Below are positions 21,099 to 60,745 of a DNA stretch of 64,000 nt, piece by piece. Source of the DNA: Bacilli bacterium (GTDB lineage Bacteria; Bacillota_I; Bacilli_A; RF39; UBA660). Numbering within the stretch: position 1 is the stretch's first letter; every line of letters starts with the position of its first letter. The stretch is from contig JAQWBL010000002.1 of the NCBI GenBank assembly GCA_028706395.1, positions 3,390 through 67,389 of the forward strand, given 5' to 3'. Below the pieces are notes generated by a model. The model was given only the letters and a program-made list of their open reading frames with translations, ran no database searches and had not been told where the DNA came from. The translations under genes and the position numbers were made by a program.

Positions 21099-21123
21099 AA
21101 ACAACTTTTTTAGTTGTTTTTTT
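21099..21123 (+). terminator. dnaN terminator
   Basis: AAACAACT/AGTTGTTT stem, 5-nt loop, T-run. Confidence 0.85.
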
Positions 21124-21135
21124 ATGCTCATTTTT

Positions 21136-21168
21136 GCATTTGAGACACATATTTGGGCATTTGGGACA
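21136..21168 (+). promoter_or_regulatory. LytTR/AgrA-type operator (two 12-nt direct repeats, 21-nt period) upstream of comK
   Basis: GCATTTGAGACA (21136-21147) and GCATTTGGGACA (21157-21168). The block 21131-21171 matches the reverse complement of 59645-59685 at 37/41 positions by hand alignment. -10-like TATATT (21191-21196) and TATGAT (21198-21203) lie downstream. Confidence 0.6.
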
Positions 21169-21255
21169 TAATCGCCCAAAAACATAAAAATATATTGTAT
21201 GATAGGAAGGAAATTCGATTTATATGTCGAATTATATTAGTAGGAGGTGAAATTA

Positions 21256-54943: not shown

Positions 54944-54973
54944 TTGACTTTTTTGAATTTTTAATGATATACT
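54944..54973 (+). promoter_or_regulatory. Promoter of the lone tRNA-Ala
   Basis: TTGACT (54944-54949), 18 nt, TATACT with TG at the extended -10 position (TGATATACT, 54965-54973). Confidence 0.7.
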
Positions 54974-55005
54974 ATATTAGTCATTATTTAATAATGATGT
55001 TCTTT

Positions 55006-55082
55006 GGGGAATTAGCTCAGTTGGCTAGAGCACCTGCCTTGCACGCAGGGGGTCAAGGGTTCGAGTCCCTTATTCTCCACCA
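55006..55082 (+). tRNA. tRNA-Ala (UGC)
   Basis: G3-U70 identity pair; anticodon loop CTTGCAC; CCA encoded. Confidence 0.93.
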
Positions 55083-55115
55083 TTAGAAATTAATCTCGAG
55101 TAATCGAGTATAACG

Positions 55116-55139: not shown

Positions 55140-55184
55140 AATTTATTAAAGCAAAATGTGTTAAAATAATGCTAGGTGAGATTT

Positions 55185-55802
55185 ATGAGTAAAATATCAA
55201 ACGTTTTAACTATGCTAGAACTTTTAAGTAATAACCGTAAATATTCGATTAATGAATTAGCGTCTATATTAGAAGTTAGTAATAGAATGGTTAGATCATA
55301 TAAGCAAGAATTAGAAAAAGCTGGTATTTATATTGATACAATTAGAGGTCCCTATGGTGGTTATATTCTAAGTACCAATATTATTCTGCCAAAACGGGGT
55401 TTTAGTAAATATGATATTTTATTATTAAATGATATACATGATATATTAAAAAATCAAAAAGGCTTTGAATTTAATAAAGAGTATTTAGAATTGATCAATA
55501 AAGTTAATGGAATTTACAAAAGCAGTAAAAAGAAAACCGATATTATTAATCTAGATGAAGTTAATAGTAATGATAAATATAATTTGTTTTTGAAAGCCGT
55601 TCGTGAAAAACGGAAAATGTGGATTAAGTTTTTATCGCTTGATAAGAGTGCTTCTGAAAGGATAATCCATCCATGTAATTTATTTAAATATAATGATGAG
55701 TGGTATGTTTCTGCTTTTTGTGAGTTAAGAAGTGAAATTAGACATTTCTCGTTACGCCGAATTGTTGATTTTAAGTTATTAGATGAAAGTTATAAGAAAT
55801 AG
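55185..55802 (+). CDS. HTH plus WYL-domain transcriptional regulator (short YafY-like)
   Basis: N-terminal wHTH (YSINELASILEVSNRMVRSYKQELEKAGIYI). C-terminal WYL-like segment (IHPCNLFKYNDEWYVSAFCELRSEIRHFSLRRI). ATG at 55185. Confidence 0.7.
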   Translation: MSKISNVLTMLELLSNNRKYSINELASILEVSNRMVRSYKQELEKAGIYIDTIRGPYGGYILSTNIILPKRGFSKYDILLLNDIHDILKNQKGFEFNKEYLELINKVNGIYKSSKKKTDIINLDEVNSNDKYNLFLKAVREKRKMWIKFLSLDKSASERIIHPCNLFKYNDEWYVSAFCELRSEIRHFSLRRIVDFKLLDESYKK

Positions 55803-55859
55803 TTAATGCGACCATATATTTCCTCTTTAAGTGCTAGAATAGTTTTATGGAGGTATTTT

Positions 55860-56426
55860 ATGGAAAAAATTGTGTTTGTTACAAGTAATGAGGGAAAAGT
55901 AAAAACAGCTCAGTCCTACTTGACTAATATTGAATTAATATACTATAAATATGATTTAATTGAACCCCGTAGTGAGTCATTAGAGGAAATAGCGAAGTAT
56001 AAAGTGTTACAAGCTTATAAACAAGTCAAAACCGATTGTATCGCGCTTGATAGTGGCTTTTATATTGAAGGATTAGATGGTTGGCCTGGAACTTTTGTGA
56101 ACTTTAATTTAAAAAAACTGGGATTAGAAGGAATAATAAAATTACTTAAAAATGTGGAATGTCGAAAAGCACATTTTCTAGAGTGTTTGGCATATTATGA
56201 TGGTAAAGAGGTTAAATATTTTTACGGTTTGTCTAAAGGAACTATTTCGCCTGAAATAAGCCAAGTTGGCAGCGAATATCAATGGTCAAATTTGTGGAAA
56301 ATATTTATTCCTGACAATCATAATAAAACATTATCAGATATGAGTGATGAAGAAAGAAAAAATAGAAAAGATGATCATACTTCGTCTTTTGTTGAGTTTA
56401 ATAATTATATAAACAAAAAAGATTAG
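55860..56426 (+). CDS. Ham1/ITPase-family non-canonical NTP pyrophosphatase-like protein
   Basis: FVTSNEGK N-terminus, DSGFYIEGLDGWPG and a late KT..+MS.EE segment, as in the ITPA/RdgB family. ATG at 55860 after GGAGGT. Confidence 0.65.
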   Translation: MEKIVFVTSNEGKVKTAQSYLTNIELIYYKYDLIEPRSESLEEIAKYKVLQAYKQVKTDCIALDSGFYIEGLDGWPGTFVNFNLKKLGLEGIIKLLKNVECRKAHFLECLAYYDGKEVKYFYGLSKGTISPEISQVGSEYQWSNLWKIFIPDNHNKTLSDMSDEERKNRKDDHTSSFVEFNNYINKKD

Positions 56427-56513: not shown

Positions 56514-56666
56514 ATGGGACCTTGGGGATATCCTGGTAGCTGTTGTCCGTCAATGCCTTGCTATGGCGGAGGGTATGGTGGAAGTGGTATAGGAATAATT
56601 TGGATTATTATTATAATATTTGTTATTTTCGCACTTTTTAATCATTCACGTCGTGATTGTATATAA
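56514..56666 (+). CDS. Tiny Gly/Tyr/Cys-rich single-TM protein (YjcZ-like), not in ORF track
   Basis: Hand translation gives MGPWGYPGSCCPSMPCYGGGYGGSGIGIIWIIIIIFVIFALFNHSRRDCI (50 aa). AAGGGGGG RBS 7 nt upstream; strong terminator immediately downstream. Confidence 0.65.
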   Translation: MGPWGYPGSCCPSMPCYGGGYGGSGIGIIWIIIIIFVIFALFNHSRRDCI

Positions 56667-56758: not shown

Positions 56759-56787
56759 TTGCAATTTTTGGCATTATATGGTAATAT
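56759..56787 (+). promoter_or_regulatory. Sigma-A-type promoter of the response regulator/kinase operon
   Basis: TTGCAA, 17 nt, TAATAT. No direct-repeat operator is seen here. Confidence 0.6.
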
Positions 56788-56833: not shown

Positions 56834-57541
56834 ATGGTTAATTTTGTTGTGTGTGATGACAATGCAGAAATTTTAAGTCAAATTAATTCTATTATAGATG
56901 AGGAAATGATTAAAAATAAAATGAAATATCAATGTCATTTGTTTGATGATTACGATAATAAGTTTATGAAATTGATGCGTTCAAAGTTACCTTTTAGAAT
57001 ATATATATTGGATATTGAGACTCCAACTTCATCAGGAATAGATATAGCGAGAGTAATTAGAAAGATTGATGTTGAAAGTGTTATTATTTTTTTAACGTCG
57101 CACGATGAATTAGGGTACACTGTTTTAAAAAACGAATTTTTATTTTTGTCATTTATAAATAAATATGATGATTATCCAAAACATTTAAGTAAAGCAATTG
57201 AAAAAGCTTTGGATGTTCTAGGTAAAAAACAAGTAATTCGTTTTGACGATAGAGGTGCTGTATATACTATACCTATTAATGATATATTGTATATAACAAG
57301 AGATAGTATTGAACGAAAAGTCGTTATTACTACTGATTATTCACAATTTAGTGTAAACAAAACACTAATGGATATGTCTGAAATGTTAGGTGATGTTTTT
57401 ATACAATCACATCGTTCATGTATTATAAATTCTACTAGAGTGTCAATCGTTAATTTACCAAAGAAAAAAATAATTTTTGATACTGGAGTTGAGATAGATT
57501 GGCTGAGTCCAAAGTATAAAAAAGAGGTATCACAATTATGA
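56834..57541 (+). CDS. agrA: LytTR-family response regulator (AgrA-like)
   Basis: Receiver domain (VVCDDN, ILDIETP) plus C-terminal LytTR domain (ILYITRDSIERKVVITT, FIQSHRSCIINSTRV). ATG at 56834 lies 7 nt after GAGGTG. Confidence 0.85.
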   Translation: MVNFVVCDDNAEILSQINSIIDEEMIKNKMKYQCHLFDDYDNKFMKLMRSKLPFRIYILDIETPTSSGIDIARVIRKIDVESVIIFLTSHDELGYTVLKNEFLFLSFINKYDDYPKHLSKAIEKALDVLGKKQVIRFDDRGAVYTIPINDILYITRDSIERKVVITTDYSQFSVNKTLMDMSEMLGDVFIQSHRSCIINSTRVSIVNLPKKKIIFDTGVEIDWLSPKYKKEVSQL

Positions 57542-58830
57542 TTTTTTTATTAAGTAGTTTTGTAGTCTCACTTGCATGTTTTTATGTATCATCTAGAATT
57601 TTTAAAGAAAAAATTAATTTTAAGGAATTAAGGTTTTGGCTAGTTGTTATTATTAACACTATTCTGATGACATTATTATTTATAGCAACTAAACACTATA
57701 TTCGTGTTTTAATTAACTATATAGTATTGGTTGTTTTAAATAAAATATATTTTAAGAAAAAAATTGTTAATGTAATTATTGGGAGTTTTTTTGTATTTGT
57801 TTTAATTACTGTTTCTGAAATAATGGTTGCAATCATATTAGTTACATTATTAAAAATTGAACCAGCTGAGTTATCAGAAGCTTTTCTTGGCCATTTCTGG
57901 CTTAATTTATTTATTGCATCAATGATGATTATATTTATAAATATAAAAAAGGTTGTTCATTTTTTTGGAAGTGTGGCTGAAAATAGAAAGAGTCAAGGTG
58001 TCTTTGAAATTCTTCCTGTGTTAGCTCTTATTGTTTTGATCTATTCAGTTTTCTTTTACTATATGTATTTCAAACTTGATGTTTTATTAGCAATGATTTT
58101 AAGTGTTATTTTGATAATAATTATTACCTTTTTGGTAATAAATATAAGTTTGGAAAAAAATTATCATAGTAATTTAAAAAAAGAATATAACAAGTTAATT
58201 AATGATTTGACGGAATATGAAAAGATTCTTGAAAAATACCGAAGAACCAATCATGAAAATAAAAACAATTTTATTGTTTTAAAAGGAATGATTCCTGAAA
58301 AAAACAAGGATATTATTAATCATATTGATGAGATTATTAATTTAAAAGAAAAAGATGATGATGAAATTTTAACTAAAACAAAACGACTTCCTTCTGGTGG
58401 ATTTCAAGGATTAATTTATCAGAAGATGCTAATTATGAAAGAAAAAGGTATTAGTTGCAATTTAGAAATAAGCAAAGATATTTATTCTAATAGTTATAAA
58501 AAATTTGATTTTGAACTTAATAAAAATTTATGTGCAATAGCTGGTATTATCATTGATAATGCTATTGAAGCGGTCGAAGATTTAAAAACAAAAGCAATTG
58601 GTATTTACCTATATAAAGATGGAAAAGATTTTTATTTTTGTATTTCCAATAATTTCCAAGGTCCAATTGATTTAGAAAGAATGGACGAGGAAGGATATTC
58701 TAGTAAAGGTAAAGGTCGCGGGTATGGTCTTAGTTTGGTTAAAAGAATTGTTGATAAAGATGAGAGACTTTCAATTGAAAGGGAATTTGTTAGGGATATT
58801 TTTAAACAAAAAATCAAAATAAAAATGTAG
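57538..58830 (+). CDS. agrC: AgrC-like (HPK10) sensor histidine kinase
   Basis: About 6 N-terminal TM helices; H-box-like RRTNHENKNNF; GHKL N-box (IIIDNAIEA) and G-box (GKGRGYGLSLV). ATGA overlap with the regulator gene. Confidence 0.85.
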   Translation: MIFLLSSFVVSLACFYVSSRIFKEKINFKELRFWLVVIINTILMTLLFIATKHYIRVLINYIVLVVLNKIYFKKKIVNVIIGSFFVFVLITVSEIMVAIILVTLLKIEPAELSEAFLGHFWLNLFIASMMIIFINIKKVVHFFGSVAENRKSQGVFEILPVLALIVLIYSVFFYYMYFKLDVLLAMILSVILIIIITFLVINISLEKNYHSNLKKEYNKLINDLTEYEKILEKYRRTNHENKNNFIVLKGMIPEKNKDIINHIDEIINLKEKDDDEILTKTKRLPSGGFQGLIYQKMLIMKEKGISCNLEISKDIYSNSYKKFDFELNKNLCAIAGIIIDNAIEAVEDLKTKAIGIYLYKDGKDFYFCISNNFQGPIDLERMDEEGYSSKGKGRGYGLSLVKRIVDKDERLSIEREFVRDIFKQKIKIKM

Positions 58831-58855: not shown

Positions 58856-58978
58856 TTATTTTATTAAGAAATCAGGTGTTTCAGGTTCGTCTAACCATAG
58901 AAACATACAAGCGGTTGTGAATGTGTTAGCAGCAACATAAGCGAGTGTACTTAAAGTTAAAGCTAAAATTTTAATCAC
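58856..58978 (-). CDS. agrD: AgrD-like autoinducing peptide precursor (40 aa, not in ORF track)
   Basis: Hand translation gives M(GTG)IKILALTLSTLAYVAANTFTTACMFLWLDEPETPDFLIK. It has an amphipathic leader, a single Cys followed by hydrophobic residues, and an acidic DEPETP tail. AGGAGG lies 6 nt upstream; the start overlaps the agrB stop (GTGATTAA). Confidence 0.75.
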   Translation of the reverse strand: MIKILALTLSTLAYVAANTFTTACMFLWLDEPETPDFLIK

Positions 58979-59594
58979 AAACGTCCTCCTTTCTTTTTTT
59001 ATATTGCAAGTAATTATTATAATGCTGATTAAAAATAATATATGCCCAAGGTGTTATTAAGAAAGATTGAATAACTAATGAAAATAATAAAGCATTTGCG
59101 ATAAAATGGTTGTTTGTAAAAATTATAATATAACTATAAATTATGGAGGTAACAGTTGATATAATTTTATAATAATTTCTTCTTTTTGTGTTAATAATTG
59201 GTCTTTTTTTAGTATCAGCAGGTGAATATTTATAAAAAACTAAGATTGAAATTATGACCGAAATTAATTTAATTTTCAAACCAATAGCTATTATTGTACA
59301 TAAATAAGTTGTTCCAATAAATAGAACTGTTGATGCAATTAAACAGATTATACCATTGGTAGCATGGAGTCCGAATGAAAACATTCTTAATAAATTATAA
59401 AACAACATTAAAATTATCAGTTCTATAAATAAATTTAAATATATAGCGATTGCAAATATTATGATGGTTTTGGTGATTGTTATATATATTCCTTCCAATC
59501 CATATCTTATAGTTGCTATTTGTTTTTCCGTGTAGTTTGGATAATGTTTTGTAATAAAGTTTAATAAAATATTTAAAACTTGATTTTTCAACAA
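58971..59594 (-). CDS. agrB: AgrB-family AIP-processing membrane endopeptidase
   Basis: Polytopic. LRMFSFGLHATNGIIC has His and Cys 7 residues apart, as for the catalytic H77/C84 of S. aureus AgrB. Also SPADTKKRPI motif. TTG start 6 nt after GAGGTG. Confidence 0.85.
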   Translation of the reverse strand: MLKNQVLNILLNFITKHYPNYTEKQIATIRYGLEGIYITITKTIIIFAIAIYLNLFIELIILMLFYNLLRMFSFGLHATNGIICLIASTVLFIGTTYLCTIIAIGLKIKLISVIISILVFYKYSPADTKKRPIINTKRRNYYKIISTVTSIIYSYIIIFTNNHFIANALLFSLVIQSFLITPWAYIIFNQHYNNYLQYKKRKEDVCD

Positions 59595-59647
59595 ATATCA
59601 CACCTCGGTTAAATTATATCATATAAAACAGTGTTTGTAATGATTTA

Positions 59648-59680
59648 TGTCCGAAATGGCCGAATATGTGTCTCAAACGC
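59648..59680 (-). promoter_or_regulatory. LytTR-type operator B1 facing agrBD
   Basis: On the minus strand, GCGTTTGAGACA (59669-59680) and CCATTTCGGACA (59648-59659), period 21 nt. -10-like TATATG/TATAAT (59613-59625) lies between the operator and the agrB start. Confidence 0.65.
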
Positions 59681-59711
59681 AAAAAATGGCATAAATAAAA
59701 CCTCCAAAAAT

Positions 59712-59744
59712 GCATTTTGAACGCATAAGTGGGCATTTCGGACA
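59712..59744 (+). promoter_or_regulatory. LytTR-type operator B2 facing rightward (toward csp)
   Basis: GCATTTTGAACG (59712-59723) and GCATTTCGGACA (59733-59744), period 21 nt. TAAAAT at 59774-59779 is at the same offset as the -10-like hexamers of the other two copies. Confidence 0.55.
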
Positions 59745-59864
59745 TTTGATATTTAAAAAAATTAAAAAACGAGTAAAATAATTTTTGTCGGGATCTTTTG
59801 ATTATATAAAAAATATTTTTCCGCAATAGTTAAAAAAATGTCGGAATTTGACTTCCCCATTTTA

Positions 59865-59893
59865 TTGATTATTGAATATATAGAGGGTATATT
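59865..59893 (+). promoter_or_regulatory. Sigma-A-type promoter proximal to csp
   Basis: TTGATT, 17 nt, TATATT. Confidence 0.65.
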
Positions 59894-59928
59894 TAAAATG
59901 TAATAATACTAGAAGGGAGAGGTAATTT

Positions 59929-60141
59929 GTGAGAGGTAAAGTTAAATGGTTTAATAACGATAAAGGCTTTGGATTTATTGAACACAATGATGAAGAAGAT
60001 ATCTTTGTTCATTATTCTGCAATCTTATCATCAGGCTACAAAACCTTAGTTGAAGGTCAATATGTTGAGTTTGAATTGGTAAGAACAGACAAGGGCTTAC
60101 AAGCAAAAAATGTTATTGAAATTAAAACTGCACTTGTTTAG
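59929..60141 (+). CDS. Cold-shock protein (CspA family)
   Basis: RNP1 KGFGFI and RNP2-like VFVHYS motifs; 70 aa. GTG start 6 nt after GGGAGAGG. Confidence 0.93.
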
Positions 60142-60152
60142 CAGTTTTTTTT
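60124..60152 (+). terminator. csp terminator
   Basis: AAAACTGC/GCAGTTTT hairpin spanning the stop codon, then a T-run. Confidence 0.8.
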
Positions 60153-60208
60153 GTTTTTATTTATATTTTTGTTCAACTGTGCTATAATTGTTATAGGAGG
60201 ATGATAGT

Positions 60209-60745
60209 ATGAAATTTAATATTCGTGGAAACAAAGTAAAAATAACTGAGGCGATTAATGATTACATTGAAAACAAAATTGGGAGACTTGGTCGTTATTT
60301 AGAAAACTCTGATAATGTAACTGCTAATGTTGTAGTCAAGATTCGTGGTGTTGAACAAATAGTTGAAGTCACAATTCATCTTAACAAGGTAATTTTACGT
60401 GCTGAAGTGGAAGATAAGAATTTATATGCTGCTATTGATTTAGTTAGCGAGAAGCTAGAGCGACAAATTAGAAAGAATAAAACAAGAATGAATAAAAAAG
60501 CTAATCGTGATAACGTAAAAGGCTTAGTAACTAATTTTGAAATAAATAAAGATGATGAGAAAGAAGAAAATAAAGTAGTTAAAAGAAAGACTGTTGAAAT
60601 GAAACCAATGAGTGAAGAAGAAGCTATTTTACAAATGAATTTAATTGATCATGACTTCTTTGTTTATCTTGATGAGAAAAGTGATAGAATTTGTATCGTT
60701 TATAAGAGAAAAGATAATAATTATGGTATTATAGCAACAAATTAG
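60209..60745 (+). CDS. hpf: Ribosome hibernation promoting factor (long form)
   Basis: 178 aa. N-terminal S30AE/YfiA fold (ITEAINDYIENKIGRL) and a C-terminal dimerisation domain (KPMSEEEAILQM..DHDFFVY). Confidence 0.92.
   Translation: MKFNIRGNKVKITEAINDYIENKIGRLGRYLENSDNVTANVVVKIRGVEQIVEVTIHLNKVILRAEVEDKNLYAAIDLVSEKLERQIRKNKTRMNKKANRDNVKGLVTNFEINKDDEKEENKVVKRKTVEMKPMSEEEAILQMNLIDHDFFVYLDEKSDRICIVYKRKDNNYGIIATN

Follow-up and report, generated by a model that had tools for sequence, protein, structure and literature searches.

Published binding sites of LytTR regulators, those of AgrA and ComE, consist of two imperfect 9-bp direct repeats, 12-13 bp apart, located just 5' of the -35 element, and they follow the consensus [TA][AC][CA]GTTN[AG][TG]. 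In the agr system of Staphylococcus aureus, the divergent promoters P2 and P3 each lie behind such a pair of imperfect repeats, placed 5' of the -35 with 12-13 bp between them. Their start sites are separated by roughly 190 bp (a value inferred from a 214-bp probe), and 18-20 nt are reported between their -35 and -10 hexamers. One arm, P2, transcribes the single agrBDCA operon and feeds back on agrBD from the better core promoter; the other, which looks strictly activator-dependent, leads to RNAIII/hld. In Streptococcus pneumoniae, each ComE box at the comCDE, comAB and comX promoters has a 12-bp linker between two imperfect 9-bp direct repeats, and the peptide quorum-sensing system acts directly on the master regulator of competence. 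Tandem imperfect repeats also precede activator-dependent promoters at the VirR boxes of Clostridium perfringens and at the PlnC/D, BlpR and FsrA operators.

We analysed a window (the whole stretch of DNA, 64 kb long, with a base composition of 27.5% G+C) in which an agr-type locus is placed toward the 3' end (Table 1). Between agrB and csp, an earlier note had described two direct-repeat operators resembling the agr P2/P3 architecture, called here B1 and B2, and had assigned one arm to agrBD and the other to a rightward transcript that it left unnamed. We find that B1 and B2 are predicted LytTR/agr operators of the ordinary type, and we propose, with a probability of about 0.7, that they are two operators of the local LytTR regulator which would drive divergent agrBD and csp promoters. 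The likeness to P2/P3 holds for the divergent dyad architecture, i.e., two outward promoters, each behind an imperfect repeat pair lying 5' of the -35 position, with predicted starts at a comparable distance, a feedback arm on agrBD endowed with the better core promoter, and a second arm that looks strictly activator-dependent. On the contrary, it does not extend to the RNAIII module or to the single operon: the second arm faces here a cold-shock-domain protein gene, and agrBD and the regulator-kinase genes form two units. The -35/-10 spacing also differs, with 17 nt at B1.

Table 1. Features of the agr-type locus and of the comK region, in the order of their positions in the window.
Feature	Position	Strand	Remarks
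Third operator	21136..21168	+	24/24; 29 nt 5' of a TATGAT -10 at 21198-21203
comK	21256-21705		Gene 3' of the third operator
LytTR response regulator, AgrA/ComE-like	56834..57541	+	ORF opens at 56759, likely start 56834
AgrC-like GHKL histidine kinase, HATPase_c_5	57538..58830	+	Domain match; convergent with agrBD
agrD, 40-aa autoinducing-peptide precursor	58856..58978	-	...TTA-CMFLW-LDEPETPDFLIK; family-wide pattern C-xxxx-x-DEPExPKSLIK
agrB, AgrB family	58971..59594	-	Pfam E = 3.8e-30
agrB-csp intergenic region	59595-59928		334 nt
Predicted agrBD promoter	59613..59641	-	-35-like ATTACA 59641-59636, 17-nt spacer, TG-extended TATAAT 59618-59613
B1 proximal half-site CCATTTCGGACA	59648..59659	-	Conserved in the alignment with relatives
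B1 distal half-site GCGTTTGAGACA	59669..59680	-	Conserved in L001, L002 and L004
B2 distal half-site GCATTTTGAACG	59712..59723	+	9/12, weakest of the six half-sites
B2 proximal half-site GCATTTCGGACA	59733..59744	+	Conserved among csp-side sites
Predicted rightward -10, TAAAAT, within GAGTAAAAT	59774..59779	+	29 nt after B2; TAGTAAAAT conserved in 30 loci
Weaker copy TGTCGGGAT of the conserved element	59786-59794	+	Right after the B2-dependent -10
Putative long csp mRNA leader from the B2 promoter	59786..59928	+	~143 nt
Conserved element TGTCGGAATTTGAC	59839..59852	+	12 nt 5' of the csp-proximal -35
csp-proximal sigma-A-type promoter-like site, TTGATT-17-TATATT	59865..59893	+	Conserved in most loci
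csp, 70-aa cold-shock-domain protein	59929..60141	+	CSD match, E = 1.3e-26; gene that B2 is proposed to drive
Terminator-like hairpin and U run after csp	60124..60156	+	8-bp stem, -8.3 kcal/mol; weak, z only -1.0

The agr gene set is canonical here, with AgrB, AgrD, an AgrC-type kinase (HATPase_c_5) and an AgrA-type LytTR regulator, and hpf then secA follow beyond csp. In the window and in all relatives examined, the regulator-kinase unit (plus strand) converges on agrBD (minus strand), with no single agrBDCA operon. The AgrD precursor displays a cysteine, a ring of four residues and a C-terminal tail that is acidic and contains proline, a pattern common to ~60 orthologs, and the ortholog from L004 gives a weak match to PF05931. 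Across species (loci L007-L086), the four ring residues are hypervariable and the flanks GSQA-C and DEPExPKSLIK nearly invariant. A hypervariable ring between fixed flanks is what is usually seen where agr specificity groups diversify, and it implies that the clade would harbor many such groups. Other features were observed near the locus. Just 5' of the response regulator, an ORF (56514-56666, plus strand) could encode a 50-aa Gly/Cys-rich product with a hydrophobic tail (MGPWGYPGSCCPSMPCYGGGYGGSG...), and a 54-aa gene is called at the equivalent position in L001 and L002. Farther 5' of the agr locus (55176-56426, plus strand) lie a WYL/HTH regulator gene, then a gene of the Ham1 family (non-canonical NTP pyrophosphatase). 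The ORF at 54964-55086 is spurious and looks like a tRNA gene read as protein.

B1 reads GCGTTTGAGACA-N9-CCATTTCGGACA (59680-59648, minus strand) and B2 reads GCATTTTGAACG-N9-GCATTTCGGACA (59712-59744, plus strand). The coordinates and strands first given for them match the sequence to the base; the 21-nt repeat period is indeed present in both, and they lie, as described, back to back and 31 nt apart (59681-59711). A repeat search, run independently, returned 35-nt inverted arms (59647-59681 / 59711-59745) which are 74% complementary. The half-site core shared by the operators is CATTT[CG][AG]G. When positions are counted one by one, B1 is identical to the comK copy at 29/33, and our recount for B2 gave the same 26/33 as before. 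We then searched both strands for pairs of half-sites spaced by a 21-nt period and scoring at least 19/24: exactly three sites were recovered in the 64 kb, i.e., comK (24/24), B1 (22/24) and B2 (21/24), and the other periods from 12 to 33 returned at most two sites each. Over 100 random sequences drawn from a first-order Markov model, 0.03 sites were obtained on average, and no score was as high as 20/24; the test is partly circular since the scan consensus came from the three sites themselves. Single half-sites are not enriched in the window (14 observed for 13.4 expected); thus, it is the paired arrangement that carries the signal.

Rewritten as 9-mers (GCATTTGAG, CCATTTCGG and so on), the half-sites give the 21-nt period as 9 + 12, that is, the two imperfect 9-bp direct repeats and 12-bp linker of the ComE boxes. 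By hand alignment, GCATTTGAG fits the published LytTR consensus well though incompletely, with a match at 7/9 positions counting N, the invariant G of GTT being a T here. The 12-mer of the earlier note can be read as this LytTR 9-mer box plus three further conserved bases (ACA). That note had also set its half-site apart from the known boxes, and the letters do differ (GCATTT[CG][AG]G here, ACAGTTAAG in S. aureus), but the 9-mer fit and the 12-bp spacer argue against a separate class. The sequence of the C. perfringens VirR box presumably differs as well. As for the protein, the window encodes a single LytTR regulator (56834-57541), which stands beside the kinase and ~2 kb from the operators, and which finds its top match among solved structures in the pneumococcal ComE (4CBV, E = 3.9e-6). 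This ComE-like match, the lack of any other LytTR protein in the window and the canonical AgrD support the proposal that this regulator would bind B1, B2 and the operator of comK.

The three operators share the same promoter geometry: a -10-like hexamer stands exactly 29 nt past the end of each, with 6 nt to the -35 position. The predicted agrBD promoter is the best promoter-like match in the region (10/12 with the TG, 4/6 for the -35); its -10 is invariant in the alignment with the closest relatives and its start is expected at ~59606. The B2 promoter has no usable -35 (ATTTAA at this position) and would start at ~59786. No -35 can be recognised at B2 and comK, as expected of activator-dependent promoters. 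The two predicted starts, ~180 nt from each other, fall inside the ranges previously proposed for them (59605-59615 and 59785-59790), and the paired outward -10s, together with the conservation across the clade described below, support the idea of a bidirectional LytTR-dependent control region.

From these elements, the following mechanism can be proposed. Each operator would consist of two imperfect 9-bp boxes with 12 bp between them, conserved here to 12 nt. Once enough of the thiolactone peptide derived from AgrD is present, the LytTR regulator would be phosphorylated by the AgrC-like kinase. A dimer of the regulator would settle on each repeat pair (~-74 to -42 with respect to the corresponding start) and recruit the RNA polymerase to the two divergent promoters. 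Through B1, the regulator would drive agrBD and ensure a positive feedback on signal production, and some basal expression is expected there from the partial -35 and the TG-extended TATAAT. Through B2, which is devoid of -35, transcription would depend on the activator and most probably yield a long-leader csp transcript, beside that of a proximal promoter of constitutive type. At comK, the third operator would be served by this regulator too.

We compared the locus with 6 loci obtained by exact protein look-up and 80 species-representative loci. AgrB homologues are numerous, and the named ones belong to MAGs labelled Bacilli, Mollicutes, Tenericutes and Mycoplasmataceae, including Candidatus Coprosoma and Candidatus Faecisoma; from these MAG names, we interpret the relatives as the RF39-type lineage. 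A divergent csp lies 5' of agrB wherever the upstream flank is present, with two exceptions. Of the 80 fetched loci, 76 non-redundant ones allow both gene starts to be placed, and every one of these has csp next to agrB in divergent orientation. The intergenic region measures 200-430 nt in these relatives, usually with hpf and secA past csp. In the closest relatives (75-77% and 57% AgrB identity), both operators and both -10 hexamers are kept, in contrast with the drifting sequence that separates them. Of 77 distinct orthologous intergenic regions, 23 contain a direct repeat with a period of 21 and a match of 10/12 or better; the other tested periods give 1-11, typically ~6.

On the csp side, the rightward -10 (GTA[AG]AAT) served as anchor for 30 non-redundant loci, whose upstream sequences align without gaps and show c.TTtAgACA, 21 nt farther cTTT.aAaCA, and then, after 27 nt, TAGTAAAAT. 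The information content of this alignment displays a lag-21 autocorrelation (r = 0.49). For the agrB side, a weight matrix trained on the csp-directed sites alone was applied to the opposite strand. In 44 of 76 loci, for 5.1 expected, 48-65 nt separate the end of the top dyad from the start of agrB, and the period of 21 comes out best (5.7 bits, the others not exceeding 3.6). By score alone, the agrB-side dyads exceed all 50 shuffles in 16/76 loci; the comparative support on this side is positional and not score-based. Searching without bias for the best 33-nt inverted repeat of each intergenic region, we recovered the operator pair in ~6 loci (the window, L001, L004, L034, L035 and L042), the AT-rich background having swamped the search. 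Both arms are thus conserved across relatives, which makes the layout a feature of the whole clade and not of this genome alone. The pairing of csp and agrB, each time with its dedicated operator, is still seen when AgrB identity falls from 100% to ~41%, and this suggests that the link has been selected rather than being accidental, though the constant adjacency could be mere inherited synteny. In one sub-clade (L022, L024, L044, L046, L052, L068, L075, L080 and L084), we also noticed an extra conserved motif, GTGACAC / ACACTTGT, ~10 nt 5' of the distal csp-side half-site; it does not occur in the window.

The gene faced by the rightward arm, csp, seems to possess a promoter of its own. Between the B2 start and csp, a stretch of ~20-60 nt, variable in sequence and length between lineages, is followed by a conserved block composed of TGTCGnAnnTTGA, 12 nt, TTGAnn-17-TATATT, ~28 nt and AGAAGGGAGA, then by csp. 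This block looks like a sigma-A-type promoter of csp with an upstream element, and the promoter is probably constitutive. Owing to this conserved site, csp could be expressed in this genome without the B2 promoter. One may then ask whether B2 is a second upstream set of sites cooperating with B1 on agrBD only, csp being transcribed solely from its proximal promoter. The sigma-A-like site itself, the degenerate distal half-site of B2 and a leader without significant structure (z = -0.87 in the window and a mean z of -0.09 over 22 loci, neither being significant) all go in this direction. However, B2 is inverted with respect to B1, while LytTR dimers bind tandem repeats directionally; a -10 stands exactly 29 nt past B2, as at agrB and comK, with TAGTAAAAT kept in 30 loci; and, in lineages with short intergenic regions, the repeat/-10 unit is the only promoter-like site before csp. 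We consider this alternative unlikely. Indeed, in these ~10 loci (L027, L028, L030, L043, L053, L056, L085, L012, L015 and L017), the repeat, the 29 nt and the -10 directly precede csp, with no second promoter-like site, and it is on this ground that we read the rightward transcript, which the earlier note had left unnamed, as csp mRNA: read-through into csp is the most probable outcome, rather than an RNAIII-like RNA. After csp, the weak terminator-like hairpin and a good promoter-like site before hpf suggest that csp is monocistronic.

By analogy with S. aureus P3, the rightward arm could also produce a separate effector ending before csp, either a small RNA or a peptide, as a counterpart of RNAIII/hld. 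A 21-codon ORF (59838-59903, MSEFDFPILLIIEYIEGIFKM) that is retained in L001 and L002, and in L004 with a TTG start, might seem to provide such a peptide. Nevertheless, no ribosome-binding site precedes this ORF and distant loci do not keep its frame (in L020, a stop occurs at codon 7), and we rejected it as an hld-like product. A small RNA fares no better: no terminator was found between 59786 and 59929, the Rfam search of 59400-60400 returned only sub-threshold chance matches, the segment following the -10 varies in sequence and length across lineages, and folding gives no significant z-score; many loci could form a short hairpin immediately 3' of the predicted start, without statistical support. 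In sum, terminator, Rfam, conservation and folding checks revealed neither an RNAIII-like RNA nor a conserved small ORF on this arm, and a separate effector appears very unlikely. We thus retain csp as the proposed target of B2.

Another element of the intergenic region attracted our attention. The motif TGTCGAAWTT, found 12 nt before the csp-proximal -35, is near-universal among the loci and is more conserved than the LytTR boxes; for this reason, it probably belongs to a different factor or represents an RNA element. In some loci (L025, L032 and L055), it is in tandem with an 11-nt period, and two inverted copies stand in the comK leader (21211-21236; AATTCGA...TCGAATT). Considered as the mark of a wider regulon, it is not enriched in the window. 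It may resemble the CodY or CtsR boxes.

The third operator extends the discussion to competence. Located in the dnaA-dnaN-comK-recF-gyrBA region (~18-27 kb of the window), comK lies between dnaN and recF, by the replication origin genes, in the window and in all the relatives examined for it (L087-L091), and its operator and -10 are conserved in relatives. A terminator-like hairpin of dnaN is seen at ~21100-21125, before the comK operator. In L091, the comK half-sites (ATTTAGACA and ATTTAAGACA) carry the same variant as the agrB operator of the same MAG (TTTTAGACA, L010), and such a match within one MAG is what is expected if one regulator serves both genes. A metagenome-wide scan for the exact pattern CRTTTSRGACA-N10-CATTTSRGACA returned 104 stretches, among which the relevant ones come only from the L001 genome and are its operators at agrB and comK; it revealed no further regulon member, the other stretches belonging to unrelated organisms or being due to chance.

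That the repeats are bound by another factor (for instance ComK, as autoregulation at comK could suggest, or an unlinked regulator), or are remnants of mobile elements, as their 35-nt imperfect inverted arms might evoke, the adjacent two-component system being then irrelevant, is hardly credible: the repeats resemble LytTR sites, and not the A/T-rich ComK boxes, in their internal tandem structure with a 21-nt period, in their 9 + 12 layout and in the sequence of the box, only three copies exist in 64 kb, each at a promoter position, and position and period are kept while the sequence drifts with the lineage, as fits co-evolving operators, and we rejected a mobile-element origin of the inverted arms on account of this lineage-linked drift and of the promoter-only positions.

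Taken as operators of the local LytTR regulator, B1, B2 and the comK site would place this locus between several described systems. Neither the type of operator nor its bidirectional arrangement is new, both being textbook features of LytTR/agr systems. As in S. pneumoniae, whose ComE is the closest solved structure to the regulator, peptide quorum sensing would be wired directly to the competence master regulator; the two systems differ by the signal, an AgrBD-type thiolactone precursor here and a ComC/ComAB peptide there, and by the competence regulator, ComK of the Bacillus type here and the sigma factor ComX there. We found nothing pertinent, in the literature searched, on Csp as an agr output, on a LytTR-comK wiring or on agr in RF39, and the wiring to csp, conserved across an uncultured order, and to comK is unusual and appears undescribed. 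The full picture, i.e., an agr system without RNAIII which would use Csp as its divergent quorum-sensing output and whose regulator would also directly switch on ComK, is possible and we put it forward tentatively. If it is true, a protein RNA chaperone, Csp, would be the post-transcriptional effector of quorum sensing, and the circuit would be a hybrid between the streptococcal logic, where a LytTR regulator controls the competence master regulator, and the Bacillus logic, where ComK is this master. Natural transformation would then be density-dependent in these small-genome, uncultured gut and digester bacteria. In any case, the analysis offers a testable map for a widespread uncultured gut and anaerobic-digester group, with the signal, the sensor, the regulator, the 33-nt operator and the three proposed direct targets agrBD, csp and comK, and the comK operator suggests a lead for inducing competence in bacteria that are now beyond genetic manipulation.
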